64,000 bases of DNA from Sphingobacteriales bacterium (GCA_027484425.1 JAIXSZ010000020.1:11988-75987), one strand, 5' to 3'. Counted from the first letter of the stretch, positions 1-29,331 are shown. Numbers and translations are program-made. The notes: generated from the letters alone by a model not told the origin.

Positions 1-703
1 TTATATCGTACGATGGTGTCCAGCCCGCTGCCGGTACCAGATAACTGATTGTTATATCAGAGGTTACGGCTTCTTTCGAGTAGAACTTTACCAGCAACTG
101 CCCACCCGGCTGGTAGCCTTTTGCCTGCTCCTCCTCTAGTTGCAGTTCCAGCTTCGCTATCCGTTCATCTATTGCCACCTTCATCACCTCTAGTTTATTC
201 TTTGCCGTCAGGTAGCTGCCCATCTTACTGCTTACTAGCTCCAGCATCTTCGCCAGTTCTGTTACAGTAAGCCCCGTATTGTAGCCGCTCACCTTACGGT
301 TGTCTTGCAGCACGGCTATTTGCTCTGTCAGCACAGCTATGTTTACGGCTACATCTGCCTTATTTTTCTTCTCAGTTTGTATGCTGTCTTTCAGTATTTT
401 AGCAATGGGCGAATATATTTCTTCCTCCAGATAGTTGTTCTGAAACACTGCCGACTGCACCACCGCACCATTACTGGCACGTATCACCAGGCTCGAGCTA
501 CTCACATTTCCTGCCACATTCGTCAGCATTATTTCGTTTTCGCCTTTGTCTAGTGCTATACTGGCTCGGCTGGTTAGTTCAGCACCCTTCAGAAACACCG
601 TAGCCGTTTCTATGTTCAGTCGTTGCTTTTTCTGCACCTTGGCATAGCCAGTTATAGTTACTAGCAGTATCATGCTCAGCACAGAGATGGATTTCAGTAG
701 CAT
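1..703 (-). CDS. Partial CDS running off the left edge of the window (its 3' end lies beyond position 1). Secreted coiled-coil protein, possibly DUF4139/DUF4140 (MuiA-like) family.
   Basis: Minus-strand frame is open from the ATG (complement of 701-703) to the window edge. Signal-peptide-like N-terminus MLLKSISVLSMILLVTITGYA followed by long coiled-coil stretches. The family assignment is from recalled sequence features only. Confidence 0.4.
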   Translation of the reverse strand, partial: MLLKSISVLSMILLVTITGYAKVQKKQRLNIETATVFLKGAELTSRASIALDKGENEIMLTNVAGNVSSSSLVIRASNGAVVQSAVFQNNYLEEEIYSPIAKILKDSIQTEKKNKADVAVNIAVLTEQIAVLQDNRKVSGYNTGLTVTELAKMLELVSSKMGSYLTAKNKLEVMKVAIDERIAKLELQLEEEQAKGYQPGGQLLVKFYSKEAVTSDITISYLVPAAGWTPSYDI

Positions 704-888
704 ATTTTTCTGTTTTAGGTAAGTAATAAGTGCGCCATTTGCGCTATTAGGTAAATGTACCAAAATATGCTTTGTTCCTTATGTAATCAATTTGCAACCT
801 TTTATCACTAAGTTCATCCGCCTACTGATAACTTACATTTTTCATTGACACATAAAATTTCCTTCCTAAAACCGTTAACTTTGTTGAC

Positions 889-1092
889 ATGAATTCAGCA
901 GAAAAAGAGAAAATCCTAAAAGACATCGAAAAGGGAATCAAGGAGTTTGATTGGATGCAATCTGGCAAGTTGAAATCTCCAAATTTCAATATTGTTTTGC
1001 AAGAACTGAGAACCGAAATAAATAAAGGATGGGACCCACCTGCCAGCAAGCGAAACGTTCAAGATATTATAGATTCAAAAGCTAATAATTAG
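889..1092 (+). CDS. Small hypothetical protein (67 aa)
   Basis: ATG-started ORF in an AT-rich region, helical and charged, no recognisable family. It is the first gene of a same-strand run of small ORFs. Confidence 0.3.
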   Translation: MNSAEKEKILKDIEKGIKEFDWMQSGKLKSPNFNIVLQELRTEINKGWDPPASKRNVQDIIDSKANN

Positions 1093-1172
1093 CCATTAGG
1101 TAGAGTCATTTCATCTTAGTCAGCTAATCTACAATTTCCTTAAGAGAACTGCAAATACCCACAAGTGTAAAT

Positions 1173-1664
1173 ATGGCAAATTGTTTTTGGTCACTTTTAA
1201 TGTTTTTATTTCTTATTGGATGTAGAAGTAGCAATAAATTTGTATCCTTCAACACCTATGTTACTTATACCCAAGGCAAAGAGCAGAAAGTGAGATACAC
1301 AGCAAGAATACCTAAAGGCTTCACAGCTTTTAAAATAGAAGCAGGTGGTGAATATGGCACTGACAAAGCATTTCGTTATCGGGATTCATCCATTATATAC
1401 ATCTCAGATTATCAGCTTTGCGATTTGAACTATGAAAATGTTCAAAAAGCTGGATTGTGGTCGAAGAGATTTACTTATACTAAAATATCTGTGAAATCAA
1501 TTTGCGACACATTAACGTTAGAAGGAATTGACGGCAATGGTTTGTATTGGAAAGAAGTTTTTAGAGGTAAAATTTGTATTGGCTATAGCAAAGTTAACGA
1601 AAGCAATAAAAACTCTTTTGATAAAGCAATAGAGTCTTTTAAATGTCGACACAGGTTGTGGTGA
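1173..1664 (+). CDS. Hypothetical lipoprotein (163 aa)
   Basis: N-terminal signal peptide with a lipobox-like LIGC (MANCFWSLLMFLFLIGCRSS). No family recognised. Confidence 0.5.
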   Translation: MANCFWSLLMFLFLIGCRSSNKFVSFNTYVTYTQGKEQKVRYTARIPKGFTAFKIEAGGEYGTDKAFRYRDSSIIYISDYQLCDLNYENVQKAGLWSKRFTYTKISVKSICDTLTLEGIDGNGLYWKEVFRGKICIGYSKVNESNKNSFDKAIESFKCRHRLW

Positions 1665-1719
1665 AAAAATAAAGTAAGTCCATTGGAGGTTTGCATAATT
1701 TCACAAGCAGATAATCACT

Positions 1720-2547
1720 ATGAGCAGAAATGAATGGACTACAGAAAAATTAATCTCCCGCCTTCTCACTAATAAGTCTGAGAAAACTTACTGGAATAAC
1801 ATTAGAGTTTTACGTAGTAGACCCACCATAGAAGTCTTAAACAGTTCTATAGAATTAACGCACCGTAGTGACGCAAAAGCCAGAAGAATCGGCATTGATG
1901 TTTTGGCTCAATTAGGTACCCCACCAAGGCCATTTTATGACCAAAGCAATAAATGTTTTTTTGAACTCTTGAATATAGAGAACGACCCAAAAGTATTAAT
2001 GTCTTTATTTTATGCCATTGGTCATAACAACGAAAAACTAAGTAATATACAAATAGAAAAGCTTTGCGAATTTTTTGACTCCCCAAACGAACTAGTTATT
2101 GAAGGATTAGTTCATGCATTATTAGGTGTAGACAAACCAAAAGCAATTGATGCGCTGATTAAACTTTCTACGCACAAATTATCTCATATCAGAGACTGGG
2201 CAACTTTCGGTTTAGGGTCTCTTGTAGAAAGAGAAAATAAAAAAATAAGAGTTGCATTGTGCAACAGGGTAAACGACAAACATAAAGACACAAAAGCTGA
2301 AGCTATCCTTGGTCTTGCCTTACGCAATGATTCTGGCATTGTAGACATTATACATCGAGAAGTGCTCACCGAAGAGTATGATACTATGTTGTTAGAAGCC
2401 ATTATTGCAATTAATGGCATTGATCTTTTACCAGTTTTAGAGCATCATTTAGCCAAAGTGCGAAACAATCAAGAAATTAATCCTACTTGGCTTAGTGGCC
2501 TCAAAAACTGTATATTGGAATTGCGTAAGAAAGCAACTAGTGAATAG
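1720..2547 (+). CDS. HEAT / PBS-lyase-like repeat protein (275 aa)
   Basis: Repeated ~30-aa helical units (ARRIGIDVLAQLG, VIEGLVHALLG, IRDWATFGLG, AILGLAL) typical of HEAT_2 repeats. It starts 55 bp after the preceding ORF on the same strand. Confidence 0.5.
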   Translation: MSRNEWTTEKLISRLLTNKSEKTYWNNIRVLRSRPTIEVLNSSIELTHRSDAKARRIGIDVLAQLGTPPRPFYDQSNKCFFELLNIENDPKVLMSLFYAIGHNNEKLSNIQIEKLCEFFDSPNELVIEGLVHALLGVDKPKAIDALIKLSTHKLSHIRDWATFGLGSLVERENKKIRVALCNRVNDKHKDTKAEAILGLALRNDSGIVDIIHREVLTEEYDTMLLEAIIAINGIDLLPVLEHHLAKVRNNQEINPTWLSGLKNCILELRKKATSE

Positions 2548-2703
2548 TTGTAATCTTGTCACTCTGCCGGGTAGAATCCTTTTTACTGGTGGCTTTTTTG
2601 TTCGATAATTCCCACTTTGCTTCATTAGCATTATGTTTGTATTTAATGTCATTATGATAAGTCCTATTTTTACATACATTAAGGCTGTTTAACCAAACCG
2701 GAT

Positions 2704-3231
2704 ATGGAAACAAGAATATTCTATTATTCTAAAGGCAGTAGCACGTTCTATTTTACTGCAATTGTCTTAGTAGCAGGATTGTCACTTTGGGCTCTTCTCT
2801 CTGATGACGTAACAATCGGCAAAAGGATATTTGCAGGGATTTTGCTACCAGGGTCCCTTTACATGGCTTATAGGAATTTCAAAAACTCTATCAAACCAGC
2901 ATATAAGAAAAAACCTGCGCTGATAATGGATGAAAAAGGTGTCTATATTGATGATATGCAGATAACAATATCATGGGATAACATTAGCAGCGTAAAGATG
3001 GATCGAGTTGGGAGACAAGGAGATTGGATATTCTTGTACATAATAAATAAGCACGCCATTAGCTACCAATTAAACAGAGATTTCAGTAGCGACTACATTA
3101 ATATTATTCCTTTTGATTATGCTGATGGTTGGGCTATTTTCGATGCACTTAAAGCATTCTGTGGTAAATACAGGCCTAGTGAAGTACTATTCAGCGGATA
3201 CAAACCCGAAACTTGGCCATCTGAGGGTTGA
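2704..3231 (+). CDS. Hypothetical membrane protein (175 aa), 2 TM plus a PH-like soluble domain
   Basis: Two hydrophobic helices near the N-terminus (FYFTAIVLVAGLSLWALL, IFAGILLPGSLYMAY), followed by a basic linker and a globular C-terminal domain. Confidence 0.45.
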   Translation: METRIFYYSKGSSTFYFTAIVLVAGLSLWALLSDDVTIGKRIFAGILLPGSLYMAYRNFKNSIKPAYKKKPALIMDEKGVYIDDMQITISWDNISSVKMDRVGRQGDWIFLYIINKHAISYQLNRDFSSDYINIIPFDYADGWAIFDALKAFCGKYRPSEVLFSGYKPETWPSEG

Positions 3232-3360
3232 ACTTTTTGTGTTTATAATCTTATGTCCCCGTTCTTCCAGTTCCGCCGTTGTCGGTGTTCCTCACCAACA
3301 ACGCTCGAGCAGGACAGATAACACTCAGATAAGACTAGTATCCATTGTCCGATAGCTGCC

Positions 3361-3433
3361 TCAAGTTGTTCCGAAGGGTCAACTGGAACTGCAAATAAAA
3401 ATCGTTCTCCCGAACGCATTCATTTGCCTGTAG
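3361..3433. repeat. Dispersed intergenic repeat, copy A (diverged, 5'-truncated)
   Basis: The core ...GTTCCGAAGGGTCAACTGGAACTGCAAATAAAAATCGTTCTCCCGAACGC... matches copies at 4441-4520 and 6481-6565. Confidence 0.6.
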
Positions 3434-3639
3434 CTAAATGAGTGCACCTTTCTCACTGGATTTTGTTTGTAGCCTAGCATTGTGTATTGGCTACCTTTTG
3501 CCCGCTATTTCCCCCAAAAACAGTTTGTAATTATTTCTCTCACCGGCTTCCAGTCTAGACACTGTGCCTTTGCTAACTAGTACCTCACACAATGAAGTCA
3601 GCTCGTAAATTCCAAACCCATCCTATCACTACTTCATCG

Positions 3640-4164
3640 TTACTTACTCACAGCTAATCTTTCAGCAAAAGCAGTAAATTCCTCACTTGCCCTATCTTTG
3701 TTTATGTTGTGTATTGACGTTAAGTACCCCATAAATGTATGTAGCACACTGCCATCCATTTGAGGTAAATCTACTTTTACTCTATTATCCAAGATTAATG
3801 CTGAGACAGTAGTCAAATTAAGCCATGTATTGAAGATTTTATTTCTGCCATTTTGTTTATTATCCACATAGTCACAATGATATAATAGAACTACCCCCGA
3901 GCCACGCTCTTCTACAAAATCAATCACTATTTTAGCTATTGTTACTCCTATCAAAGGATCTTTGTCCCAGTTTTTAGACTTGAGAACCCTATTAAACCCA
4001 AAACCATAGCCTTGTGTAAACAATCCTGGATACTCAGATAGGTATTTAACATACTGGTATGGGTCGAAGTAAACCGAGTACAATGAACCGTTATGAGTAA
4101 GAAAAGAATAAGAAATGATGTCTTCGTTATCTTCTTCCTGTATGTATGAATAAAAATCTTCCAA
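3640..4164 (-). CDS. Hypothetical protein (174 aa), TTG start, translationally coupled to the upstream 45-aa ORF
   Basis: The ORF begins with TTG immediately after the TAA of the preceding small ORF (GGT TAA TTG). No family recognised. Aromatic-rich, contains HCDY and GFGFN motifs. Confidence 0.45.
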   Translation of the reverse strand: MEDFYSYIQEEDNEDIISYSFLTHNGSLYSVYFDPYQYVKYLSEYPGLFTQGYGFGFNRVLKSKNWDKDPLIGVTIAKIVIDFVEERGSGVVLLYHCDYVDNKQNGRNKIFNTWLNLTTVSALILDNRVKVDLPQMDGSVLHTFMGYLTSIHNINKDRASEEFTAFAERLAVSK

Positions 4165-4302
4165 TTAACCTTTATGTTTAGTTAATCGTTTCAAAGCCTT
4201 TTCTTCCAACATTTTTTTTATTTCAGCTTTTCTTTTTGCTATGTCTTCAAAGAAAGAAATAGCCTCTTTATTGCTTGGCGATATAACTATCTTTTTTAGC
4301 AT
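4165..4302 (-). CDS. Small hypothetical protein (45 aa), first gene of a coupled two-gene cassette
   Basis: Hand-translated: MLKKIVISPSNKEAISFFEDIAKRKAEIKKMLEEKALKRLTKHKG. ATG is the complement of 4300-4302, and the TAA abuts the TTG start of the 174-aa ORF. A TAATTTTG (-7-like) motif lies ~40 bp upstream on the minus strand. Confidence 0.3.
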   Translation of the reverse strand: MLKKIVISPSNKEAISFFEDIAKRKAEIKKMLEEKALKRLTKHKG

Positions 4303-4440
4303 TTCGAATGATTTTAATTTCTATTTATACAGCAAAATTACTCCTTTTTATCATAATATTTGAATCCCGCTCGGAGTATTATAACAAGTTTGTAATAAAG
4401 CTTGGCGTAAGTTTTCTCTACCTCACACACTTTGCCGTTG

Positions 4441-4520
4441 GTTGTATCGTTGTTCCAGTTGTTCCGCAGGGTCAACTGAAACTACCAATAAAAATCGTTC
4501 ACCCGTACGCCTTCAATTTC
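4441..4520. repeat. Dispersed intergenic repeat, copy B
   Basis: ATCGTTGTTCCAGTTGTTCCGCAGGGTCAACTGAAACTACCAATAAAAATCGTTCACCCGTACGCCTTCAATTTCTTGCAGCTTAAT. Near-identical to copy C. Confidence 0.7.
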
Positions 4521-4679
4521 TTGCAGCTTAATAATTTCTTCCATCAGTCATTCCCACTCTATCCTTGCTTAACGCTCAGGCCTGATTACTGCAAGTGTCG
4601 ATTACGAAAACCCTATCCACATAGGTTTTTTCCACCTAGCACCAATAAAGAATTCAGCGAAAATGGCTGATTAGGCTGC

Positions 4680-6365
4680 TTATTCTTTTAGAATTTTGAA
4701 TACATAAGTTTGGTTACTGGTATAAATGCGGCAAATGTGGATGCCGTTGGGTAAATCCTTTATCGGTACATGTGGCGTACGCCCGTTAAGCGTATAGGTG
4801 CCAATTACCTGTCCGCCAAGGCTTATAATATCAAGCCTGGTATCTATAAATGCATAGTTGGCGGCAATAGTGATTTCGCTAGAGGCAGGGTTGGGATAAA
4901 CAAGTAGTTCTTTCAGATCATTATTCACATTCGTTACTGACGTATGATGGTCTACAGGCGGCAGCGTATCAGGCACACAACCCGGAAGGTTATACCTATA
5001 TGCCCCAACAAAAAATACCTGACTTATACCATCTGTTACCACAACACTGTCGAAACCAAGTTTTATTGAACAAACGCTGGCATCAGAAACCACATACACG
5101 CTTCCTTTATTATCGACAGCTACAGAAGAACCATCGTCGCCACCAGTATTGATAAATACGGTATCTATTAGATTGCCCGCTGTATCAAAATGAGCGAGGT
5201 ACATTGGGTTTGAGGGCGATCCGATAGAATGCCCACCCTGACCGCACATCCAAATATCATCACAATCATCTACCTCTAACTGGCAAAGTGAAAATATAGT
5301 GTTATCTTCAATGGTCTTTGCCCATCGTACACGGCCTGATGTATCGTATTTCGCAACAAACATTCTGCGCCTTCCAAATGAATAAGGTAAAGTAATTGTG
5401 TCAAGCGTAAGGTTGTTCACATAATTGCCTCCGATGTACAAATTTCCTTCTGGGTCAGCAGAACAACTGACTGCTCTTGTAGCAAAAGTATCCGCTACTA
5501 TTCCTTGTGCCCATAGTGGATTCCCGTCCTTGTCTGTTTTGGCTATAAAAAAGTATGTTTCAACACCCGAAGTTGGGTTGTAAATTGTAGATGCACCAAA
5601 TGAAAATGAATCTGACGTGTATCCACCCATCATATATATCATGCTGTCATCAGTCAATGCCAACTCGTAAATTTCATCATAAGTTCCATTACCCCCATAG
5701 CCCTTCGCCCAATGGTAGTTAAGTTCTGCGTCAGACTTGGCTACGAAAACATCTCCGCCGCCTAATGGAGTCGGAAGGGCAGAACTGCCCAACACCACGC
5801 CAGTACCATAAAGACCACCAATATACATCATTCCACTACTGTTTATCTTGATGCTGCGTGGAAATGCGCCAAAAGGGAATTTTTTTACCCAAGCTACAAC
5901 GCCTGCAGATGAAACCTTTGCACAAAAGTAAAAATTAGTGGAAGGGGATGTAACCAAAAAGCCCCCAAAATCAAAACTACCGCTTGAACATTCCCCTAAC
6001 AAATAAACATTTCCACGATTGTCAGCTTCTAAGTCTAAAATTGAGGTGCGACCATCTAGCATAGGACGAACCCACTTGTAGTTTCCCAAACTATCAGTAC
6101 AAACAATAACACTTTTGAATCCAATACCAGATGCATCTTCTACTGTATCGGTACCAAAAATTGCTATCAATGGGCTTACAGGTGTGGTTGCGTTCTGCCA
6201 TAACCATGTCGAAGCATATACATTTCCAAAGGTATCAGCTTCCACAACGCCACCTTCAGTACTTGCTCCTGGGCAATTACCGACTGATGCAAACCTCCAA
6301 CCTTGTGCGAATGAATTACTTACAAATAGAATTAAAATTACGAATGTAATAAAAGGACTTTTCAT
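4680..6365 (-). CDS. Secreted SBBP beta-propeller-repeat protein with T9SS type-A C-terminal sorting domain (561 aa)
   Basis: Signal peptide MKSPFITFVILILFVSNSFAQ. Repeated GNVY..G/SBBP-like motifs. C-terminus LVYPNPASSEITIA...GIHICRIYTSNQTYVFKILKE is typical of the Por/T9SS CTD. Confidence 0.75.
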   Translation of the reverse strand: MKSPFITFVILILFVSNSFAQGWRFASVGNCPGASTEGGVVEADTFGNVYASTWLWQNATTPVSPLIAIFGTDTVEDASGIGFKSVIVCTDSLGNYKWVRPMLDGRTSILDLEADNRGNVYLLGECSSGSFDFGGFLVTSPSTNFYFCAKVSSAGVVAWVKKFPFGAFPRSIKINSSGMMYIGGLYGTGVVLGSSALPTPLGGGDVFVAKSDAELNYHWAKGYGGNGTYDEIYELALTDDSMIYMMGGYTSDSFSFGASTIYNPTSGVETYFFIAKTDKDGNPLWAQGIVADTFATRAVSCSADPEGNLYIGGNYVNNLTLDTITLPYSFGRRRMFVAKYDTSGRVRWAKTIEDNTIFSLCQLEVDDCDDIWMCGQGGHSIGSPSNPMYLAHFDTAGNLIDTVFINTGGDDGSSVAVDNKGSVYVVSDASVCSIKLGFDSVVVTDGISQVFFVGAYRYNLPGCVPDTLPPVDHHTSVTNVNNDLKELLVYPNPASSEITIAANYAFIDTRLDIISLGGQVIGTYTLNGRTPHVPIKDLPNGIHICRIYTSNQTYVFKILKE

Positions 6366-6480
6366 AAAAGGTATATTTTACTGTTAAAAATGGGTGTACT
6401 TATCAAAGTTACCTTCATTGACGTGGTGTATAGGCAAACCGTTAGTATAAATAGAAAAATTTTCGCAGGCTATCGTACCA

Positions 6481-6565
6481 AACTCGATCGTTGTTCCATT
6501 TGTTCCGCAGGGTCAACCAGAACTACCAATAAAAATCGTTCTCCCGAACGCCTTCACTTTCTACC
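6481..6565. repeat. Dispersed intergenic repeat, copy C
   Basis: ATCGTTGTTCCATTTGTTCCGCAGGGTCAACCAGAACTACCAATAAAAATCGTTCTCCCGAACGCCTTCACTTTCTACCAGCTTAAT. Confidence 0.7.
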
Positions 6566-6896
6566 AGCTTAATCATTTCCGGCGCTTTGGGTGCTCCTCA
6601 ACATCGAATAGCACTTGACAGTATAATAGTAGGAACAAACATATCCTTCACTTACCAAAATTCCACATCTCAAAATGTGGATATCTTATTCTCTGCTACT
6701 ACCCATAATGGCTGACATTGGCGCACTTTTTGCGGCAGCAGTAGAGCGTAGTCTATTTATCCATTACCCTATTAAACCCACAATCATTATGTCAGCATGT
6801 TACATCCCCAATTCGCTACAACAAACATTACCCCCTATACCATCGTGCCCAACCTCACCACATAAAACCAACCTGCAAACACCCACTATCAGCAAA

Positions 6897-7915
6897 AATG
6901 AATAGCATTGATAATCAACTACTTACACCCAAAAACACATGAAATGACCGGAAACAAACCGGAAAAACCAGAAATGAACAATAAACCAAATATGACAACA
7001 AAACCACAGCATCCTGCGACCCGCATCCTGTAAATCCTAAAATTCTGTAAATCCTGATTCAGACAAAAACACCATCATACCGGAAAAAATGAATAGTATT
7101 GATAATCAACGAGTTACACCAAAAAACACATGAAATGACCGGAAACAAACCGGAAAAACTAGAAATGAACAATAAACCAAATATGACGACAAAACGACAG
7201 CACCTACACATATTTAGCAAATCGGCAGCAGGAACACCGCAACAAACTGTCAACTTATTTCGGGACTATTCAAACGGCCCACATCCTGTAAATCTTAAAA
7301 TCCTGTAAATCCTGATTCAGACAAAAACCCACCGGAAAATGCATGCACACCGGAAAAGTGAATAGCATTGATAATCAACTACTTACACCCCAAAACCCAT
7401 GAAAACACCGGCAAATAACCGGCAAAACTGGAAATGAACAATAAACTAAATATGAAAGCAAAACCACAGCATCCTGCGACCCGCATCCTGTAAATCCTAA
7501 AATCCTGTAAATCCTGATTCAGACTAAAACACAATACAAACCGGAAAAATGAATAGTATTGATAATCAACAACTTAAGTACCAAAACACATGAAAACACC
7601 GGAAACAAACCAGAAAAACCTATCAGTAGCCATAGCTATTTAGCGACGGCTACAGAAATGAACAATAAACCAAATATGACGACAAAACGACAGCACCTAC
7701 ACATATTTAGCAAATCGGCAGCAGGAACACCGCAACAAACTATCAACTTATTTCGGGACTATTCAAACGGCCCACATCCTGTAAATCCTGATTCAGACAA
7801 AACCCACCACAAAATGCATGCACACCGGAAAAATGAATAGCATTGATAATCAACAACTTAAGTGCCAAAACACATGAAAACACCGGAAACAAACCGGAAA
7901 TACATATTTGCTTCC
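6897..7915. repeat. Complex tandem repeat array, about 4.4 units. Short (~190 bp) and long (~270-285 bp) unit variants alternate.
   Basis: Units start near 6897, 7089, 7359, 7549 and 7833 (partial). Each begins (A)ATGAATAG(C/T)ATTGATAATCAAC and ends ACCGGAAAA. The short variant carries CCACAGCATCCTGCGACCCGCATCCTG, the long variant CGACAGCACCTACACATATTTAGCAAATCGGCAGCAGGAACACCGCAACAAACT. ORFs 7099..7308 and 7559..7840 are translations of the repeat. Confidence 0.85.
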
Positions 7916-7925
7916 CCGCTTATTG

Positions 7926-8402
7926 TTATGTCACTCTCGAGTGCAGATAATTGCAGCAATATATCAACAGCAGCAAAAACTCAGGCTTATTCATCTCTGG
8001 GTAGTTGTCGTCCGTTTCTATTTGGTAGTGAAAGCTGAACTCAGCTATTTTAAAATGTTGATGCACCATAGCCGTTTCATGCTCATGTTCATTAATCACC
8101 CCAAAGTGATAATTGAAAAAACCCACACGCTTAAAGGCATACGAGCTGCCATTTTCCAGCTCTATTATTATTTGACCTTTCCAGTTAAATCTTAATGATG
8201 CCTCTTTACGTTCACCATCAAAAACCGAAACACTGGTATGAAACGCACCCTGAGGATTCAACTGATAGATTTTGCCTTCTGGCAATTGTATTTCTGCCTT
8301 TATCGAAAACCAGGAAGTATAATCCAGTTTGCCCAGCGATGTGCCGCTTTCATCCTGCAATTCAAAAAAACTATTCCTCGTCCCTTTAGCCGAAAACTTC
8401 AT
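7926..8402 (-). CDS. Hypothetical protein (158 aa)
   Basis: ORF with ATG start and no recognisable family. Its 3' end abuts the tandem array. Confidence 0.4.
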   Translation of the reverse strand: MKFSAKGTRNSFFELQDESGTSLGKLDYTSWFSIKAEIQLPEGKIYQLNPQGAFHTSVSVFDGERKEASLRFNWKGQIIIELENGSSYAFKRVGFFNYHFGVINEHEHETAMVHQHFKIAEFSFHYQIETDDNYPEMNKPEFLLLLIYCCNYLHSRVT

Positions 8403-8689
8403 AGTACACCATTTTTTACAAACTCTAATATATAACCTTCACCCCAATTAATACAATATGACTGATAAGATATTTTGCCAATTCATAATTCTACCGCACC
8501 TATTTTCCGCTCAGCATACACTATTATCTATCTGTAATGTCTTTACATAGAGTATTATAAGCAAAATTTGAAAGAATATAATAAAAAAATGGGGGTAATA
8601 TGGTAATAACTATATAAAATCTCAATTTTTCCCATAAATTTGCCGACCTTGACAAAAATACTTAGTACAAAACACAATACAAACCTACA

Positions 8690-10894
8690 ATGGCTGTAAT
8701 ACAAACAATCAGAAACAAGTACGGGAAAATAGCGGGCGGGGTTATCGCAGTTGCGCTGGTTGGGTTCATCATTTCAGATGCTACAAGTGGCTCTATTGCT
8801 AATTTCTTCAGCGATAGAGACCCTAACGTTATGAACATAAATGGCACTGAAATAGAGCCAAAAGAATACGCTGAAAGATCCAAAGAATACGAAATACTGT
8901 ATAGCATGTACAATCAGGGACGCAACATCGATGATGTGTCTCGTGCTCAGATGAACGAGCAATTGATACAAATGATGGTATACGAAGCTATTGTAAATGA
9001 AGAGTGCGATAAGCTAGGTATTGCAGTAAGCGACGAAGAAAAGAAAGAACTGATTTATGGTATGAACGCCGACCCTATGGTTAGGCAGTTTCAGATAGAA
9101 GGCAACCAAATCTTCAACGATCCTCAGTCTCAAAACTTTGATCCAGGAAGAGTAAAAGGTTTCGAAAAAGAAATCGCAGAAAGAGGCGATCGTATCGACC
9201 CTTCTGGCAAAATCAGAGACCAGTGGGCTGCTGTAGTAGCTTATGTACAGCGCTCAGCTCGTGTACGCAAGTACAACACCCTGTTCTCTGGCGCTGCTTA
9301 CATGCCCAAAGCACAAATGAAACGTATGATGATGGAGCAAAACACTCAAGCTTCTATCCGCTACGTTAAAGTGCCTTTCACATCTGTTTCAGACAATGAT
9401 GTAAAAGTTACTGACGAAGATATCAAAGCTTACATGCAACAGCATGAAGCACTTTACAGAAATGATAATGCTACACGCGGCATCGAGTATGTGAGCTTCG
9501 AAATCGTACCTTCTTCTTCAGACACTGCCAGAATACTCAACTTCTTTACTGAAATCAAAGATGAGTTTGTAACCACTAAGGATAACGAAAGCTTCGTAAA
9601 CAGCAAAAGTGACTTGGTTAACTCTTACACTCAAACTTTCTTCAATAAACGTACCCTTACCTCTCGTTATGCCGACACTATAATGTCTATGCCTGTAGGC
9701 GAGGTGTTTGGTCCATACTACGAAAACGGTGGATACAATATGGTGAAAGTCACAGACAGAAAAACCCTGCCAGATTCAGTAAAACTGCGCCATATCTTGG
9801 TAAAAACCAAAGACCAAGGCAACGATGTTCGTTCTGACGAAGCAGCAAATGCTAAAATCGATAGCGCAATAGCAGCTCTCAAAGCGGGTGGCAAATTCGA
9901 TTCATTGGTTAATGTATATACCGAAGATGAAGGAAGCAAACAAAAAGGCGGAGAATACACCTTTACCCTAATGGACAAAGCTGGTATCTCAAAAGAGTTT
10001 GGCGACTTTGCATTCGAAGGTAAAGCTGGCGAAAGCAAGAAAGTAAAAGTATCTAACGACAACTATGCCGGGTATCACTACATAGAGATACTAGAGCAAA
10101 AAGGAATAGCACCTAGCGTGCAAATAGCACTCGTAGCCAAAACATTGATACCAAGCGATAGTACCAACAATGCCCTTTATGGTAAAGCCAACGAATTTGC
10201 CGGCAAAAACAACACAGCCGAAGCATTCGACGCTACTGCCAAAAAAGAAAACCTTGATAAGCGTGTAGGCGACAATGTGAAGATCAACAGCTTTGCAATA
10301 GATGGTCTGGGTGCAGCGCGCGAAGTGGTAAAATGGATGTACAAAAAAGACATAAAAGTAGGTACAGTATCAGAAGTTTTCCAGATAGGCAACGAGCGCT
10401 ATGTGGTTGCTAAACTATCTGGCATCAACGAAAAAGGCCTGAAAAAATTGACTCCTACCGACAGACCAATGCTAGAGCAAAAAGTAAAAGAGGAGAAAAA
10501 AGCAGAATTGATTGCTAAGCGTTACGGAGGCAAGGCGCTAGAAGCTATAGCCGCCGAAACGCAACAGATGGTACAGCAGAGCGACTCTGTGAGCCTTGCA
10601 GGCACTTACATCCCTAATTTGGGCTACGAGCCACGTGTAGTAGGTTACACCTTCAACAAGTCATTCCAGCCTAATACTGTATCTCCAGGCATCAAGGGTC
10701 AAGGTGGTGTGTACTTCATTACAGTGCTTAACAGAGTCAGCAATCCATTGCCTCCAGATGGTGGTATGATGGATCAAATCATTGCTCAGCAACGTTTTCA
10801 GCAAGAAAAACAAATGAGGAACCTCATAGACCAAGGTATACAGCAGTCGCTTATCAAAAAAGCGAATGTAGAATACTTCCCCACTAATTTCTAA
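8690..10894 (+). CDS. Periplasmic chaperone PpiD-like / SurA N-terminal-domain peptidyl-prolyl isomerase family protein (734 aa)
   Basis: N-terminal single TM anchor (GGVIAVALVGFIISDA), then a SurA_N-like chaperone domain (EQLIQMMVYEAIVNEECDKLGIAVSDEE). The size and architecture match the Bacteroidota PpiD/peptidylprolyl isomerase family. Confidence 0.65.
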   Translation: MAVIQTIRNKYGKIAGGVIAVALVGFIISDATSGSIANFFSDRDPNVMNINGTEIEPKEYAERSKEYEILYSMYNQGRNIDDVSRAQMNEQLIQMMVYEAIVNEECDKLGIAVSDEEKKELIYGMNADPMVRQFQIEGNQIFNDPQSQNFDPGRVKGFEKEIAERGDRIDPSGKIRDQWAAVVAYVQRSARVRKYNTLFSGAAYMPKAQMKRMMMEQNTQASIRYVKVPFTSVSDNDVKVTDEDIKAYMQQHEALYRNDNATRGIEYVSFEIVPSSSDTARILNFFTEIKDEFVTTKDNESFVNSKSDLVNSYTQTFFNKRTLTSRYADTIMSMPVGEVFGPYYENGGYNMVKVTDRKTLPDSVKLRHILVKTKDQGNDVRSDEAANAKIDSAIAALKAGGKFDSLVNVYTEDEGSKQKGGEYTFTLMDKAGISKEFGDFAFEGKAGESKKVKVSNDNYAGYHYIEILEQKGIAPSVQIALVAKTLIPSDSTNNALYGKANEFAGKNNTAEAFDATAKKENLDKRVGDNVKINSFAIDGLGAAREVVKWMYKKDIKVGTVSEVFQIGNERYVVAKLSGINEKGLKKLTPTDRPMLEQKVKEEKKAELIAKRYGGKALEAIAAETQQMVQQSDSVSLAGTYIPNLGYEPRVVGYTFNKSFQPNTVSPGIKGQGGVYFITVLNRVSNPLPPDGGMMDQIIAQQRFQQEKQMRNLIDQGIQQSLIKKANVEYFPTNF

Positions 10895-11026
10895 AAAATA
10901 TAATATATTAAATCGTCTAAAAAGGGTTGTCATTCTGGCAGCCCTTTTTTATTTGCATAGGGCAATAGATATATATACGTGTTGCAATTCTGAAAAATTA
11001 GTATCTTCGATTCTAACTATTTTTAT

Positions 11027-11413
11027 ATGGTTCAGCAATTTACAGAAGGCGTAAGTATAATGGTTGAAACATTCTATCAGCCACTACAGTCCAACCCTAT
11101 AAGGTCAGAGCATCTTTTTGCCTATCGCATCACTATCGAAAACCTAACAGTTTATCCGGTGAAGTTGTTGAGCCGCCATTGGCATATACTAGATAGCAAT
11201 GGTACTCACAGAGAGGTAGAAGGAGAAGGTGTAGTAGGTCAGCAGCCCATCATACAGCCCGGCGACAGCTACCAATACACATCAGGGGTCAACCTTATGA
11301 GCGACATTGGTAAAATGTATGGCACCTACCTAATGGAGAATCTTTTCAATAAAAAGAAACTGACCATAGCCATACCAGAGTTCAAGCTGGTAACACCTGC
11401 CAAGCTCAACTAA
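11027..11413 (+). CDS. apaG: ApaG-domain protein
   Basis: Strong match to the ApaG/DUF525 signature: SRHWHILDSNGTHREVEGEGVVGQQPIIQPGDSYQYTSG. Confidence 0.8.
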   Translation: MVQQFTEGVSIMVETFYQPLQSNPIRSEHLFAYRITIENLTVYPVKLLSRHWHILDSNGTHREVEGEGVVGQQPIIQPGDSYQYTSGVNLMSDIGKMYGTYLMENLFNKKKLTIAIPEFKLVTPAKLN

Positions 11414-11435
11414 ATTGAAGTAATCTTATCTTTTT

Positions 11436-12035
11436 CTAGGCTGTAAACTGCTCCAGCTCCTTGCTGCGCAGTAAGTACTTGCCCAGCACATCAAACTCTA
11501 TGTTTACCTTTGTGCCTTCCTCTATGGTATGAAAGTTGGTATGAGTGTAAGTGTACGGGATAATGGTAACTGTACATTCATCCCTACCCGTATTGAATAC
11601 TGTTAGGCTCACTCCATTGATACATATAGAGCCTTTCTCTATCACCAGTGCCCCAAACTGGCCTGGAAACCTAAACCTGAAAAGCCAGCTACCATCCAGT
11701 GTCTGTTTTTCTATACAAGTAGCAGTAGCATCTACATGACCTTGCACCAAGTGGCCATCAAGCCTATCGCCCAGCCTCAATGACCGTTCTATATTTAGCT
11801 TATCTCCAGTTTTCCAGTTACCTAGCGTGGTTTTGGCTAATGTCTCAGCAACAGCCGTCACGTTATAGCTGCTACCCTCTATGGCGGTTACGGTGAGGCA
11901 TACGCCATTGTGAGCCACACTTTGGTCTACCTTCAGCTCATCAGTAAGTGGACCATCGATAGTGTAGTGAACGTTAGTACCCTCCTGTCTTATCTCTTTT
12001 ACTACCGCTAACGCTTCTATAATTCCAGTAAACAT
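11436..12035 (-). CDS. ribE: Riboflavin synthase alpha subunit
   Basis: MFTGIIEALAVV...VAHNGVCLTV...GVSLTV lumazine-binding repeats, 199 aa. Confidence 0.85.
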   Translation of the reverse strand: MFTGIIEALAVVKEIRQEGTNVHYTIDGPLTDELKVDQSVAHNGVCLTVTAIEGSSYNVTAVAETLAKTTLGNWKTGDKLNIERSLRLGDRLDGHLVQGHVDATATCIEKQTLDGSWLFRFRFPGQFGALVIEKGSICINGVSLTVFNTGRDECTVTIIPYTYTHTNFHTIEEGTKVNIEFDVLGKYLLRSKELEQFTA

Positions 12036-12042
12036 TATTATG

Positions 12043-12606
12043 CTATTTTTTTATGGCTCGTCCTCTGCGCACTGTTGCTCCAGTATCTGTTCTTATGTAC
12101 AGGTCTACATACATCAAAGAGCTATCTACCTTGTCTCTCGCAAAATAGCCCACTACAGTATCTTTTTGGCTACAGAAGTACTGACCAGGATAAAGTGTTG
12201 TAGAATCGCCCACTGTAGTGTCTACCGTGGCTGTGTAGGTAGCGCCTGCTGTAAGTATTAGTTTTTCGCCAGATGGGCACAAGCCATCTATGCTTATTTT
12301 AGTTTGGGATATCTTGGTAATGTAAATGGTAAACGAGTCGGCGGAAAGATACAAGTCTGTAGCCGCCTGATAAGAGGTGTCTTTGAATGAATAAGTGCCC
12401 GCAAAGAGATCGGATGGATAGAAGCAAACTGTATTATCTGGTTTGCCAGGAAAACCCCAATTATAGTTTACAGCGCTGGGGTCGTTACAGTAAGGGTTGT
12501 TCAATCTTGGGTCATCTATGGGTGCAGGATCTTGCCATTTTTTACATGACACTACTACGCCTGTTGTCAGACACAATAGTAGCAATATGGATAATAGATT
12601 TCGCAT
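12043..12606 (-). CDS. Hypothetical lipoprotein (187 aa)
   Basis: Signal peptide plus lipobox MRNLLSILLLLCLTTGVVVSCKK. It lies 8 bp downstream of ribE on the same strand. Confidence 0.5.
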   Translation of the reverse strand: MRNLLSILLLLCLTTGVVVSCKKWQDPAPIDDPRLNNPYCNDPSAVNYNWGFPGKPDNTVCFYPSDLFAGTYSFKDTSYQAATDLYLSADSFTIYITKISQTKISIDGLCPSGEKLILTAGATYTATVDTTVGDSTTLYPGQYFCSQKDTVVGYFARDKVDSSLMYVDLYIRTDTGATVRRGRAIKK

Positions 12607-12775
12607 TATTTTTGTTGTTAGTGCCTACAACCAGATAGCTATAGCACCTACATAACGGTGGTTTAGCAAAAATATTTAAAATAGCCGGTAAAACGGGCAA
12701 ATATTATGAAGCTAAGTAACAACGCAACGTAAGATGCTGAAATAAATAACTGAAGAAATAGGTATAAGGACTATA

Positions 12776-13102
12776 CTACACAGCAAAGCTGTCACCACAA
12801 CCACAACTGCGACTGGCATTAGGATTACTGAAGTGAAACCCTTTACCATTCAGCCCGTCAGAGAAATCGAGGGTCGTATCGCAGAGGTATAAAAAGCTTT
12901 TGAGGTCAGTAACAACTTTTACCCCTTGGTCTTCAAATTCTTGGTCTTTAGGCTGCTTTTCATTGTCAAAGTCGAGCTTGTAAGACAAGCCTGAGCAGCC
13001 ACCGCCTACTACGCTCACACGAAGAAAATAGTCTTCACTAAGGTCTGCATCGCGCCTCAGTTGATCTACTTTTTCTTTCGCCTTGTCGCTTACATAAATC
13101 AT
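12776..13102 (-). CDS. IscA/HesB-family iron-sulfur cluster insertion protein
   Basis: 108 aa with the C-terminal CGCGDSF and GGGCSG motifs characteristic of A-type carriers. Confidence 0.8.
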   Translation of the reverse strand: MIYVSDKAKEKVDQLRRDADLSEDYFLRVSVVGGGCSGLSYKLDFDNEKQPKDQEFEDQGVKVVTDLKSFLYLCDTTLDFSDGLNGKGFHFSNPNASRSCGCGDSFAV

Positions 13103-13207
13103 TGTAATGTTGTTGGATTTTTTGTTTTTAGGTAATTTTTTTCATTACTAAAGACAACATCACATGCCCTATGGACCAGTGATGTTGTCTATTAATGTGT
13201 TGAAATA

Positions 13208-13624
13208 TTAGTGTGCTTTTTTCTCACTCACCATTTCAGGCAATCCGTTTTTTACACGGTAGTCGTTGATAGCTGCTTTGATAGCATCTTCGGCAAGCAC
13301 TGAGCAGTGAATTTTTACTGGAGGCAAGTTCAGTTCTTCAACGATATCCATATTGTCTATAAGTAATGCCTCATCAATCGATTTACCTTTAAGCCATTCT
13401 GTAGCTAAAGATGAAGAAGCAATAGCAGAGCCGCAACCAAAGGTTTTGAATTTGGCATCACTTATCATGCCACTAACCTCATCAACTTCTATTTGCAGGC
13501 GCATTACGTCGCCACACTCTGGTGCACCCACCAAACCTGTACCCACGTTAGTTTTAGCTTTATCAAGCGTTCCTACATTTTTAGGGTTGGAATAATGATC
13601 TATTAATTTTTCTGAGTATGCCAT
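13208..13624 (-). CDS. iscU: Fe-S cluster assembly scaffold IscU
   Basis: HYSNPKNVG...GAPECGDVMRLQ...FKTFGCGSAIASSS. Conserved Cys residues and LPPVK motif. Confidence 0.85.
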   Translation of the reverse strand: MAYSEKLIDHYSNPKNVGTLDKAKTNVGTGLVGAPECGDVMRLQIEVDEVSGMISDAKFKTFGCGSAIASSSLATEWLKGKSIDEALLIDNMDIVEELNLPPVKIHCSVLAEDAIKAAINDYRVKNGLPEMVSEKKAH

Positions 13625-13717
13625 TGTTTTGTGTTTTTTGTTTGTTGCACATTTAGTTTGTTGTGCAGGTGATTTGTACTATAGTATGAATTTTCTAATG
13701 TTGTTTTACTATATTAC

Positions 13718-14938
13718 TTAGTGGTGCGCCCACTCTATAGAGTTCAGATCTATACCTTCTTTGTGCATTTCCCAAAGCGGACTCATTTCGCGGAGTTTCA
13801 GCACTGTGTTTTTAATAGCATCTATTGTAAAGTCGATTTGTTCATCAGTGGTGTATCTACCTAGACCGAAGCGGAGAGAGCTATGTGCTAAGTCGTCGCC
13901 AAGGCCTAATGCTTTGAGCACATAAGAAGGCTCAAGTGATGCAGAAGTACATGCTGAACCGCTAGATAGGGCTATATTTTTATTGAAACCCATCATCAGA
14001 CCTTCACCCTCTACGTACTTGAAAGAAATATTGGTGGTGTGTGGTAGTCTGTGTGCACGATTTCCGTTCACGTAGGCTTCTTCCAGTTCCATCAACGAGT
14101 TTTCTAGTCTGTCGCGCATTGTGCTCAGTCTTTTTGCTTCGCTTTCCATTTCGTGCATGCATATTTCGCAAGCCTTACCCAGACCTACAATGCCTGGTAC
14201 GTTGAGTGTGCCACTGCGCATGCCACGCTCATGACCACCACCATCCATCTGAGAGGTTACTTTTACACGTGGGTTTTTGCGACGCACATAGAGTACGCCT
14301 ACACCCTTGGGTCCGTACATTTTGTGGCCGCTAAACGACATTAGGTCTATGCCATCTGCCAACACATCTACTGGTATTTTACCTACAGCCTGTGTGCCAT
14401 CAGTAAAGAAAAGCACGCCGTGCTTGCGGGCAATGCTGCTTATTTCACGAATTGGCTGTACAACACCAATCTCATTGTTGCCGTACATGATGGCAATAAG
14501 GATGGTTTTGTCTGTGATTGCAGCCTCTAGCTGAGCTAGGTCTATAAGACCATCTGGCTGCACCTCTAAGTAAGTTACCTGACCGCCTTGCTTTTCTATG
14601 TGTTTGCACGCATCCAGCACAGCTTTGTGCTCAGTGGTGCAAGTAATGATGTGATTGCCTTTAGAAGCATACATTTCAAATACACCTTTCAGTGCAAGAT
14701 TGTTGGCTTCAGTAGCCCCTGATGTAAAGATGATTTCTTTTGAGTCAGCATTTATTAATTTTGCCACTTGCTCGCGAGCATAATCTACAGCTTCTTCAGC
14801 CACCCATCCGAATGAGTGGTTGCGGCTAGCTGCATTACCGAATTTTTCAACAAAATAGGGTAACATTGCTTCCAAAACCCTTGGATCCATTGGGGTTGTG
14901 GCATTATTATCAAGATATATTGGGAGTTCTAGTTTCAT
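13718..14938 (-). CDS. iscS: Cysteine desulfurase IscS
   Basis: [14 protein letters not shown]-terminus, PLP-binding [14 protein letters not shown] and the active-site SSGSACTS loop. It is the first gene of the isc operon on the minus strand. Confidence 0.85.
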
Positions 14939-15046
14939 ACTATATTTATAAACAGATTTTAAACAAAATTACGTCAATTTGATAACTTTGAACTCCCGCA
15001 CAGGATTGGATTTCCTATATTGCTATTTGTAAAAACTATAAGAGTT

Positions 15047-15451
15047 ATGTTGAAAATAGAACATTTGGGCATTGCGGTAAAGAGCCTGGAGCATGCGGTG
15101 CCACTGTATGAACAACTACTAAATACCCCCTGCTACAAACAAGAGGTTGTGGAAACGGAAGGTGTGAGTACAGCCTTTTTTAGGACTGGCGACGAAAAAA
15201 TAGAACTGTTGGAGGCTACCAATGAAAATAGCCCAATAGCGAAGTTTATAGCCAAAAAAGGTGAGGGTATTCATCATGTAGCATTTGAGGTAGAAAACAT
15301 AGAAGCTGAGATGAAGCGTCTTGCGGCATTAGGTTTTGAATTGCTCAACGATGTACCTAAAAATGGTGCCGACAACAAACTGGTATGTTTTCTTCACCCA
15401 AGGTCTACAAATGGCGTTTTGGTAGAACTGTGCCAAGAAAAGAAAAATTGA
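15047..15451 (+). CDS. Methylmalonyl-CoA epimerase (VOC/glyoxalase family)
   Basis: MLKIEHLGIAV...GEGIHHVAFEVENIEAE. The ORF track begins at a TTG at 15020; the ATG at 15047 gives the canonical N-terminus. Confidence 0.7.
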   Translation: MLKIEHLGIAVKSLEHAVPLYEQLLNTPCYKQEVVETEGVSTAFFRTGDEKIELLEATNENSPIAKFIAKKGEGIHHVAFEVENIEAEMKRLAALGFELLNDVPKNGADNKLVCFLHPRSTNGVLVELCQEKKN

Positions 15452-15551
15452 TGTAGCCACATTTATTTTTATTAGTACGGTAGTTGTTAGACCCAAATTA
15501 TATAATTTGCAGCTACCAAAAACTAAGTCACTAACAATCAATAAAATTAGT

Positions 15552-16250: not shown

Positions 16251-16265
16251 CCACAATAACGGTAA

Positions 16266-17249: not shown

Positions 17250-17254
17250 CTTGT

Positions 17255-18721: not shown

Positions 18722-18881
18722 AGTTGGTTATTGCCTTGCTTGATATAGTTATCCTGCATCAAATGATGGGCGAAGGTAATAATTAGCTGGCGAAAATGCT
18801 ACTGAGCTAATGAGTGCATAGGTAATAGCAGTAATGAAATTTGGGTTATTTTCGGTGCATAGGGTTACTTTTGTAAAGCAA

Positions 18882-19616: not shown

Positions 19617-19637
19617 TACTAAATACACAACCAAACT

Positions 19638-20606: not shown

Positions 20607-20852
20607 TGCTAGTGACGTATAAGCCTCACTATCATTATTACCACAGCTATAAGAAACATAAACAGAGAAATTCTGTTCATGCCATGCATAAACTTGATAT
20701 TCATGTTTCTAGGTTCGCTATCATCACGTTTGCGCAGGTAGAAGTATGTGAGTACCTGCTGCCAAATTCCTTGTTTCATCAATCACCTAATTTTTTAATG
20801 AAGTTACGAAAATAATCCCTCAAAGCTACTATATTTGCAGGCACAGTGAGCA

Positions 20853-21248
<396 letters not shown>

Positions 21249-21385
21249 ATCTCGACACTAAGAAGTGCTACAATACCTCATTCCCTTAGTTACCAAGATG
21301 GCACAAGAGTACGCAACCATAGATGAAAATACTATTGCAATGTTTGGCACAATAGTTGCTTTTGCATTATCTTAACAATTGACCT

Positions 21386-24167: not shown

Positions 24168-24199
24168 CTGTAAATATCAATTATAAACGACTGTATGCA

Positions 24200-24226
24200 A
24201 GGGCTGCCGCTAACATGGCAGCCCTT
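24200..24226 (+). terminator. Rho-independent terminator-like hairpin after cysS
   Basis: GGGCTGCCGCTAACATGGCAGCCC stem-loop followed by a T-rich tract. Confidence 0.45.
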
Positions 24227-29308: not shown

Positions 29309-29331
29309 TCACATCGACTACTAGTTTTTTC

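Follow-up and report, generated by a model that had tools for sequence, protein, structure and literature searches.

Flavipsychrobacter genomes carry a family of head-to-tail modular repeat arrays with modules shared with the linker of a small-terminase-like protein family

Several described systems are close to the locus analysed here. Neisseria NIMEs, Rhizobium RIMEs, Escherichia coli BIMEs and pneumococcal BOX elements are lineage-specific mosaics of dispersed intergenic modules with variable copy number, and intergenic mosaic repeats of this class are tied to rearrangement breakpoints and assembly breaks. REP/BIME elements associated with RAYT are built from palindromic units of 20–40 nt in alternating orientation, together with a Y1 transposase, and CRISPR arrays consist of repeats of about 23–55 nt separated by unique spacers. 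Rickettsia palindromic elements are repeats that occur in intergenic regions as well as in frame within genes. In phages, the sites recognized by the small terminase at pac and cos often lie inside the small-terminase gene itself: pac is located within the small-terminase genes of P22, SPP1 and P1, while lambda cosB is composed of R sites and an IHF site. Small RNAs dependent on sigma-54 and carrying A-rich motifs are represented by Pseudomonas CrcZ; we know of no CrcZ-type partner protein in Bacteroidota.

The locus lies in a 64,000-nt stretch of DNA (the window) and consists of five head-to-tail units at 6898–7915, the last of which measures 83 nt. The features and modules are collected in Table 1, with unit boundaries set by our own alignment. 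Every unit begins with the head (A/G)TGAATAG(C/T)ATTGATAATCAAC. The sequence AATAGYATTGATAATCAAC occurs five times in the window, on the + strand only (6901, 7092, 7361, 7552 and 7836), all within 6901–7854, and is absent from shuffled sequence, while a repeat search recovered a 105-nt family of five copies at spacings of 191, 269, 191 and 284 nt. The periodic tandem array proposed in an earlier sequence-only reading is therefore real, and the perfect TTGAT-A-ATCAA palindrome that it assigned to each unit is present in all five. Unit 5, counted there as a further short unit, is a truncated head only. It can be observed that ACCGGAAA is found 12 times against 1.08 expected, every copy within the array, the + strand of which contains 44.5% A and 24.6% C. 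A 134-nt block is common to both long units at 99% identity, and an extra hairpin module of 33 nt is present in unit 4. Head identity is highest between neighbours (93% for units 1 and 2 and for units 4 and 5, 81–86% for the remaining pairs), and tail identity is highest between alternate units (92% for units 1 and 3; 99% for the X block of units 2 and 4). Such a combination of neighbour-like heads and alternate-like tails implies that the array is a recombination mosaic; the ~460-bp super-unit duplication suggested earlier is accordingly not clean. The units differ by indels, and Tandem Repeats Finder, recommended as a check, missed the array for this reason.

Table 1. Features of the array and its upstream region in the window, and modules of the repeat family with the peptides that they encode in the protein-repeat frame
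Feature	Position	Strand	Description
R90, dispersed element	6488–6580	+	~90 nt; precedes the leader; contains hairpin CGTTCTCCCGAACG
Leader core	6647–6864	+	directly 5' of the first unit; 70–84% identical upstream of the first H in at least 18 other arrays, same strand
Leader inverted repeat TCCACAT-CTCAAA-ATGTGGA	6662–6681	+	right arm invariant, on to TGTGGATAT (6676–6684)
Sigma-54-type -24/-12 motif TGGCGCACTTTTTGC	6719–6733	+	TGGC-N7-TTGC, directed into the array
Unit 1	6898–7088	+	191 nt: H head, M module, T tail
Unit 2	7089–7357	+	269 nt: H, M, X block (7195–7277), long T tail
Unit 3	7358–7548	+	191 nt: H, M, T; Leu-Ile-Ile-Asn frame stopped by an in-frame TAA after 16 codons
Unit 4	7549–7832	+	284 nt: H, S hairpin module (7619–7654), M, X block (7688–7770), T
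Unit 5	7833–7915	+	truncated, head only; adjoins the 3' end of a convergent 158-aa gene
Palindrome TTGATAATCAA	6908–6918, 7099–7109, 7368–7378, 7559–7569, 7843–7853	+	one per unit; Leu-Ile-Ile-Asn in the protein-repeat frame
Module H			peptide PENETSLIINDLDPKTHETTGNK
Module M			GAAATGAACAATAAACCAAATATGA
Module T			9-nt-periodic ATCCTGTAAATCCTGATTCAGAC, then ACCGG boxes; peptide SCQSYNPENADSDK
Module S			hairpin GTAGCC...GGCTAC; peptide NLSVAIALSEGYGN
Module P			CAGCCCCTTCGGCTG, then C/T-rich tract; peptide QPLRLSLRSRSLPRSENPS
Module X			confined to long units

The array belongs to a family of modular, non-coding repeat arrays, built head to tail, that is specific to Flavipsychrobacter. Its apparent uniqueness in the window is not upheld, since the head module H is present in more than 130 copies, spread over no fewer than 45 same-strand arrays of Flavipsychrobacter MAGs. 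A 19-mer scan with one genome per species returned at least 84 loci, mainly on contigs of three Flavipsychrobacter MAGs (family Chitinophagaceae), with one to three matches per contig and frequently at contig ends. An nhmmer profile located 139 H copies in the retrieved loci, in same-strand arrays of 1–6 units at spacings of ~150–280 nt. H is ~75 nt long and comprises a near-invariant TTGATAATCAA, a TTA four bases further on and two ACCGG boxes 11 nt apart. The segments between the heads belong to a few recurring module families, so that behind its H head each unit carries a selection from M, X, S, P and T. Contigs coding an identical copy of the 158-aa neighbour protein terminate inside the array, indicating that the arrays break short-read assemblies. 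Matches to the array sequence were absent from phage and plasmid collections; a scan of viral contigs gave two single matches judged to be chance, a JGI metagenome scan with the leader block gave four matches, all unrelated, and no paper on Flavipsychrobacter repeats was found in the literature.

As dispersed, intergenic mosaics of a few modules, with variable copy number, a rearrangement breakpoint and assembly breaks, the arrays resemble NIME, RIME, BIME and BOX elements. They are a lineage-specific variant of this known class, and the variant is itself new. The modules here are bounded by direct ACCGGAAA-type boxes and not by the short, dRS3-like inverted repeats of NIMEs and RIMEs. Three traits are unusual and distinguish the arrays from all four of these systems: the strict head-to-tail arrangement of units of 190–280 nt, all on one strand; a common leader with a sigma-54-type motif in most arrays; and the homology of the modules to the coding repeats of one protein family, in the linker of small-terminase-like proteins. 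The likeness to CRISPR lies in a leader followed by a one-directional conserved element that alternates with other sequence. Membership of that class was nonetheless rejected, in agreement with the sequence-only reading, because the conserved element is a head of ~75 nt without a hairpin and the inter-head segments, the would-be spacers, are recurring modules; moreover, the element is homologous to a protein-coding repeat and no cas genes lie nearby. Assignment to MITEs is disfavoured by the lack of terminal inverted repeats, the repeat search having found 0 inverted pairs in 6400–8100, and assignment to REP/BIME-RAYT elements was rejected because H lies on one strand in each array and no Y1_Tnp occurs among 60 array-flanking genes.

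These 60 flanking genes, classified with Pfam, are diverse housekeeping genes in either orientation; neither a transposase, integrase or RAYT nor an enrichment of mobile elements was found among them, and 5 of the 60 carry a T9SS tail. The orientation of arrays relative to the nearest ORFs is mixed, with 71 long ORFs around arrays on the same strand and 71 on the opposite one. The GC skew and GC3 skew of the flanks are negative on the array strand, whichever the gene orientation. The 64-kb window displays no net skew overall and large per-gene noise, and a replication-strand polarity of the arrays was not retained.

The dynamics of the array can be followed at one orthologous site. In a related species (locus L087) a leader remnant and a single H are located at the same place beside the same adjoining gene, the 158-aa product of which is 84% identical to the window copy. 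L087 is collinear with the window from 7801, the boundary before unit 5, and its single unit is orthologous to unit 5. On the far side of the array L087 has cysS, which maps to window 22481–24174 in inverted orientation, so that synteny is broken. This comparison indicates that unit 5 is ancestral at this site, that the array expanded locally and that a rearrangement breakpoint coincides with it. The proneness to copy-number variation suggested earlier is thereby confirmed, with one unit in the related species and five in the window. L087 was the only orthologous site recovered and carries both a unit and the leader remnant; no empty site was found.

The region between the array and the T9SS gene is also repetitive. 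The array had been thought to fill the whole gap, whereas 530 nt of it are conserved repeat sequence as well, namely the leader and the 90-nt element R90. Further copies of R90 are located in the window at 4446–4538 (89% identical) and 3366–3425 (88%) and upstream of arrays in many Flavipsychrobacter loci, and its hairpin scored as terminator-like on both strands. The leader stands at the start of most arrays, that of the window included. Its most conserved blocks are an inverted repeat with an invariant right arm reaching TGTGGATATCTTA, and TTGGCGCACTTTTTGCGGCA, which contains TGGC-N7-TTGC. The left arm of the inverted repeat is present in ~13 of the 19 leader copies, the right arm and TGGATATCTTA in all 19. 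The second block matches the sigma-54 -24/-12 promoter in spacing and core, GG-N10-GC with TGGC and TTGC being found at a conserved position and orientation (consensus TGGCAC-N5-TTGCT; PMC12316311). TGGC-N7-TTGC is located 120–190 nt before the first H in 19 of the 27 arrays with at least 420 nt upstream, and array leaders supply 20 of its 33 occurrences in the 486 kb searched on both strands, against a background of 0.03 per kb. In a diverged leader (L005/L026) the TGTGGATA box, TGGC and TTGC are kept and the spacer is different. It should be noted that the motif is not rare by itself, with 5 occurrences in the window against 3.2 expected, and that it is absent upstream of the terminase-like genes. 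As a putative sigma-54 promoter it is a good lead rather than proof, and the inverted repeat at 6662–6681 is a candidate activator site. Inspection by eye of both strands for Bacteroidetes -33/-7 promoter motifs gave no convincing match. A -24/-12-type motif followed by A/C-rich repetitive sequence recalls CrcZ, from which the Flavipsychrobacter arrays differ in their many copies per genome and in having no terminator.

The modules are linked to a protein family by five loci in which H units lie inside a long ORF. The ORF at L009:1319–2569 encodes 416 aa, with an N-terminal HTH (Pfam Terminase_5, 4e-7; weak DUF1804 and transposase-HTH matches), a conserved middle, 2–4 repeats ENE[TI][SA]LIINDL[DS].KTHENTGN and a conserved in-frame C-terminal tail. 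An alignment of L009, L004, L025, L036 and L027 demonstrates that the frame is maintained across 2–4 H units into the C-terminal tails, which are of two alternative kinds in the family. The family is restricted to the genus, and the database contains 37 of its proteins, of 264–434 aa, with at least 60% identity in the N-terminal part. Their variable, disordered linkers are composed of H, P, S and T modules, in frame and stop-free: TTGATAATCAAC.A.TTA is read as Leu-Ile-Ile-Asn-x-Leu (TTG-ATA-ATC-AAC-nnn-TTA) and ACC-GGA-AAC-AAA-CCG-GAA as Thr-Gly-Asn-Lys-Pro-Glu. Over 56 nt, the T module of the window matches a segment inside the ORF of another species' gene at 91% identity, with TAA in the array where the ORF has TAT. 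Residues 4–145 match PHROG phrog_4151 ("DNA binding protein") at E 4e-21, with weak matches to several small-terminase families. In the window's strain, a packaging gene cluster lies just past the right end of the window, where a large terminase gene (phrog_38, 7e-61) is immediately preceded by the gene of a 165-aa phrog_4151 protein. The large terminase gene is followed by an adaptor-like gene and then, ~1.7 kb downstream, a Mu-like portal gene (window 61676–62764). The linker family is ~20% identical to this 165-aa protein. The position of the phrog_4151 protein next to a large terminase indicates that the linker family is a set of diverged small-terminase paralogs.

These paralogs are stand-alone genes in varied housekeeping contexts, and stop-bearing H units of the ordinary type lie after their stop codons; no H array adjoins the true terminase cluster. 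An AlphaFold2 model of the terminase-like protein was too poor for a fold search (pLDDT 46), and a sequence search of the PDB returned weak HTH matches only. In one more distant species the motif within the ORF reads PLITNDL or TLVINNL, and its palindrome is broken. Since a diverged lineage also has the coding linker repeat, this repeat seems to be ancestral, and the direction of transfer was therefore probably from gene to array and not by invasion of genes. The coexistence of non-coding copies and in-frame, stop-free protein segments of one repeat is shared with Rickettsia palindromic elements. The present case differs from these in its single host gene family, in units that do not form hairpins, and in the probable direction from gene to array.

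Whether the window units are themselves translated bears on the suggestion, made in the sequence-only reading, that conserved ORFs would make the array a tandem gene family. The TTG-initiated ORFs of 41, 69 and 93 aa named there do share their frame with a real protein-family repeat; the Leu-Ile-Ile-Asn frame is open for 41, 69, 16, 93 and 35 codons in the five successive units. However, AAR-TGA-ATA-GYA precedes every unit, placing a stop three codons upstream (the TGA precedes each TTG by 9 nt), the frame of one unit ends prematurely, the unit lengths are not divisible by 3, and a comparison of the long X-type units with relatives in two other arrays gave dN/dS of 0.6–1.0 and indels of 1 and 5 nt. 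An open frame under purifying selection, as a small-protein gene would show, was thus not found. The upstream TGA, the frameshifts and the near-neutral dN/dS indicate that the window units are not translated as conserved proteins. A long ORF was also looked for downstream of each H, and a reading of H as a conserved promoter plus 5' UTR was rejected after this search. Among distinct H variants 23% of changes are synonymous against 21% expected, while copies weighted by frequency give 35% in the protein frame against 8% and 16% in the others. This enrichment fits descent from, or exchange with, coding copies, and it could also reflect peptide selection.

The pattern of substitution within H points to constraint on the nucleic acid. 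The synonymous third positions of AAC, ACA and GGC are ~50% variable, and those of TTG, ATA, ATC, TTA, ACC, CCG and GCA are essentially invariant. The same pattern is seen in copies not picked by the search pattern and in in-ORF copies, and the palindrome is intact in 55 of the 59 copies that this pattern had not selected. Invariant synonymous sites beside variable ones are explained neither by peptide selection nor by gene conversion, and imply a site at the nucleic-acid level. RNAalifold on 114 H copies yielded no consensus structure on either strand, and Rfam searches of the region (E up to 1) and of the whole window (gathering thresholds), proposed as a check in the earlier reading, returned nothing relevant beyond sub-threshold chance matches. 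Given this lack of an RNA fold or Rfam match, a protein-binding DNA site would be the simplest reading, with the associated HTH family as the obvious candidate to bind it. The variants of the S hairpin (GGCTAC to GGCTAT, GTAGCC to GTAGTC) retain G-U pairing on the + strand and not on the other, a hint that the module may act as RNA or as a single strand; those of the P hairpin carry no strand signal. The E. coli IHF consensus is WATCAANNNNTTR. H contains a perfect and conserved match to it, ATCAA-N4-TTA, which coincides with the codons Ile-Asn-x-Leu and may equally be explained by them. Furthermore, the broken palindrome of the distant species raises the possibility that the ancestral constraint was on the peptide rather than on the DNA.

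Taken with the homology to a small-terminase-like family, these features lead us to propose, with a probability of about 0.45, that the H array is a DNA binding platform for terminase-like proteins, and that it may also be transcribed. The arrays would descend from the coding linker repeat, probably with continuing sequence exchange between the two, and would have spread, grown and shrunk through homologous recombination and unequal crossing-over. Their persistence would be due to H acting as a site at the nucleic-acid level, namely as double-stranded DNA bound by the terminase-like HTH proteins, perhaps together with a DNA-bending protein. The leader may drive sigma-54-dependent transcription across the array, and the array would not be a dedicated regulator of the adjoining T9SS gene. 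Such a platform would resemble the repeated small-terminase sites of phage pac and cos regions: within H a palindrome is joined by direct-repeat boxes and by ATCAA-N4-TTA, which resembles the IHF consensus, and H units lie inside and just after genes with a small-terminase-like N-terminus, likenesses that are drawn from sequence and association. The arrays depart from pac and cos in their number, dozens being scattered chromosome-wide and none lying beside real terminase genes, and the family proteins in their long linkers and extra C-terminal domains. An array of binding sites, as first suggested from the sequence, is still the best guess at a function. A bolder form of the proposal, in which chromosome-wide pac-like platforms for domesticated small-terminase paralogs would be switched by sigma-54 and, with the resident terminase and portal, would direct packaging or transfer of chromosomal DNA or act as decoys for invading phage terminases, is regarded as a long shot.

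Other explanations were weighed against the binding platform. The arrays may be functionless debris, that is, decaying 3' halves of terminase-like genes copied by recombination and kept by drift and gene conversion. The stops, frameshifts and dN/dS of 0.6–1.0 in the units are what decay would produce, as are the lack of synonymous excess among distinct variants (23% against 21%) and a homology to the coding linker that extends along the full length of the units. This explanation is nevertheless considered rather unlikely, because ~100 units have one specific stop-bearing variant, GTGAATAG, most arrays are headed by a conserved leader foreign to the gene, the arrays far outnumber the genes, and invariant synonymous sites beside ~50% variable ones are expected from neither drift nor gene conversion. 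A sigma-54-driven non-coding RNA, A/C-rich and largely unstructured, which would serve as a sponge, or be processed into unit-sized RNAs, and so compete with the terminase-like mRNAs for a factor that binds the same sequences in them, is in our judgement about as unlikely. In its favour, the leader motif and the inverted repeat upstream of it are both conserved and directed into the array, the S hairpin retains G-U pairs on the + strand only, and the in-ORF copies are certainly transcribed on that strand. On the other hand, neither strand of H gave a conserved secondary structure and Rfam gave no match, a + strand terminator is not apparent, many arrays lead into convergent genes, the P hairpin is silent as to strand, and a sigma-54 motif alone is weak evidence.

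The units could also be tandem small-peptide genes, each giving a peptide from the TTG of the palindrome (MIINxLxxKTHENTGNKP...) with a variable tail. Their ORF is in register with a genuine protein repeat, 66% of units keep this frame open over 30 codons or more while the other frames close at once, and frequency-weighted synonymous variants are enriched in it. Against this, the ORFs lack an ATG start and are preceded, at a distance of three codons, by a conserved TGA; an in-frame TAA at AAATAACCGG interrupts ~11 of the 98 array-type H copies, the tails show dN/dS of 0.6–1.0 and frameshifting indels, and short units read the homologous T module in another frame than long units do. We consider such genes decidedly improbable. 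Less probable again is a non-autonomous transposable element, MITE-like or REP/RAYT-like, that inserts beside its own copies. Dispersal between genes, the breaking of assemblies and the hairpin modules S and P would suit it, but terminal inverted repeats are lacking, each array has one orientation, no transposase, integrase or RAYT lies near the arrays, the sole Y1 transposase found belongs to a distant relative with different REPs, and local duplication explains the growth of the array at the orthologous site. At the very bottom of the scale stands an operator array for a regulator of the adjoining SBBP/T9SS cargo gene, the special link implied by the sequence-only reading. It is favoured by the position of the array 530 nt upstream of the gene start, by the dimer-style palindrome in each unit and by the 5 of 60 flanking genes with a T9SS tail. 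Similar arrays, however, adjoin unrelated genes in both orientations, often at their 3' ends, the orthologous L087 site has one unit and a cysS neighbour, and the leader and repeat in the intervening 530 nt are directed away from the T9SS gene.

Were the arrays mere debris, they would constitute an ordinary lineage-specific repeat family. The binding platform carries predictions of its own, namely that protein would bind to TTGATAATCAA and to the ACCGG boxes, and that transcription would start near 6745 in an RpoN-dependent manner. In practice, the arrays account for fragmented Flavipsychrobacter assemblies, the contigs of which end within them, and mark at least one synteny breakpoint. If the platform is real, coding repeats and non-coding chromosomal arrays would share modules under a dual constraint, on the peptide and on the nucleotide sequence, and a phage-derived, small-terminase-like family would be tied to dozens of sites on the Flavipsychrobacter chromosome.

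Comparison with the related species (locus L087) demonstrates that the window is collinear from 7801 rightwards, and that to the left of this point the synteny jumps to inverted segments carrying cysS and T9SS genes (window 22481-24174 and 27250-30369), so that the five-unit array coincides with a rearrangement breakpoint. Strand composition was also analyzed around the arrays. Read on the array strand, GC3 skew was negative in array-flanking genes of either orientation across 39 fetched loci, with means of -0.18 and -0.08. Within the window its sign flips near 12 kb (1-12000 vs 12000-27000), and across the whole 64 kb there is no net skew.

Several other repeats were noted, as listed in the table below. 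The dispersed repeat of about 90 nt, present in three copies in the window, contains the hairpin CGTTCTCCCGAACG, and several further copies occur at other Flavipsychrobacter loci, often upstream of the conserved leaders that precede the arrays. Because its minus strand reads as a hairpin followed by a T-run, this repeat may act as a terminator. A longer unit of about 360 nt, lying between head modules (H), was found in six copies in one MAG and is absent from the window. It holds a short ORF-like stretch (..ADRYKNAQPLMVPFDAEE..), in which differences between copies are mostly non-synonymous; its T-rich part is strongly conserved, with hairpins formed by GTAGC..GCTAC plus a T-run and by a 12-bp A/T palindrome. 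The repeat of about 60 nt upstream of the genus-restricted terminase-like genes is found three times in tandem at locus L009.

The 158-aa gene that abuts the array in the window has a homolog in a more distant relative, where it is preceded by a RAYT-like Y1 transposase of 153 aa. Classical REP-type hairpins, GCTCCGTTAGGAGC and CCCCTAACGGGG, lie on the flanks of this transposase and are unrelated to the H family. A perfect H head also starts a contig from a Runella sp. MAG, which probably reflects a mis-binned or chimeric contig end and not an H family outside Flavipsychrobacter.

Coordinates of repeats, motifs and genes in the window and the fetched loci (L-numbers)
Feature	Location	Strand	Remark
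~90-nt dispersed repeat	window 6488-6580, 4446-4538, 3366-3425		copies 88-89% identical to each other
~360-nt inter-head unit	L006 5917-6295, L021 3870-4250, L032 3497-3858, L045 2257-2612, L048 764-1128, L051 209-562
~60-nt repeat CAGCCCCAACGGGGCGCAATATCATAGCGGTGGGCATCGCCCACCGAAAA	L009 about 860-1040; L094 about 8080-8140		two different species
Y1 transposase and 158-aa homolog	L090 4800-5990
H head ACCGGAAAAGTGAATAGCATTGATAATCAAC	L052 3-37
Mu-like portal gene	window 61676-62764
DnaA-box-like TGTGGATAT	window 6676-6684		in every leader
DnaA-box-like TGTGGATAA	L005/L026		diverged leader
Perfect TTATCCACA	L009 1162-1169		upstream of a terminase-like gene
Perfect TTATCCACA	L096 6115-6122		upstream of true small-terminase-position gene
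Sigma-54 -24/-12 motif TGGCACAATAGTTGC	window 21345-21359	+	near-consensus; 24 nt upstream of ORF 21383-22171

Housekeeping genes flank a small cluster of phage-type packaging genes that occupies window 61139-63721 and continues past the window end (L096 6172-11626). A phrog_4151 DNA-binding protein comes first, in the small-terminase position; the large terminase is next, then proteins of 188 aa and of adaptor-like type, and the Mu-like portal and a phrog_6911 protein complete the order. No gene for a capsid or tail component was recognised in the cluster, which may be what remains of a prophage or else a domesticated module. DnaA-box-like 9-mers recur in the leaders and upstream of terminase-type genes. 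Finally, the position of the near-consensus sigma-54 motif just ahead of an ORF suggests that sigma-54 promoters are used by this organism.
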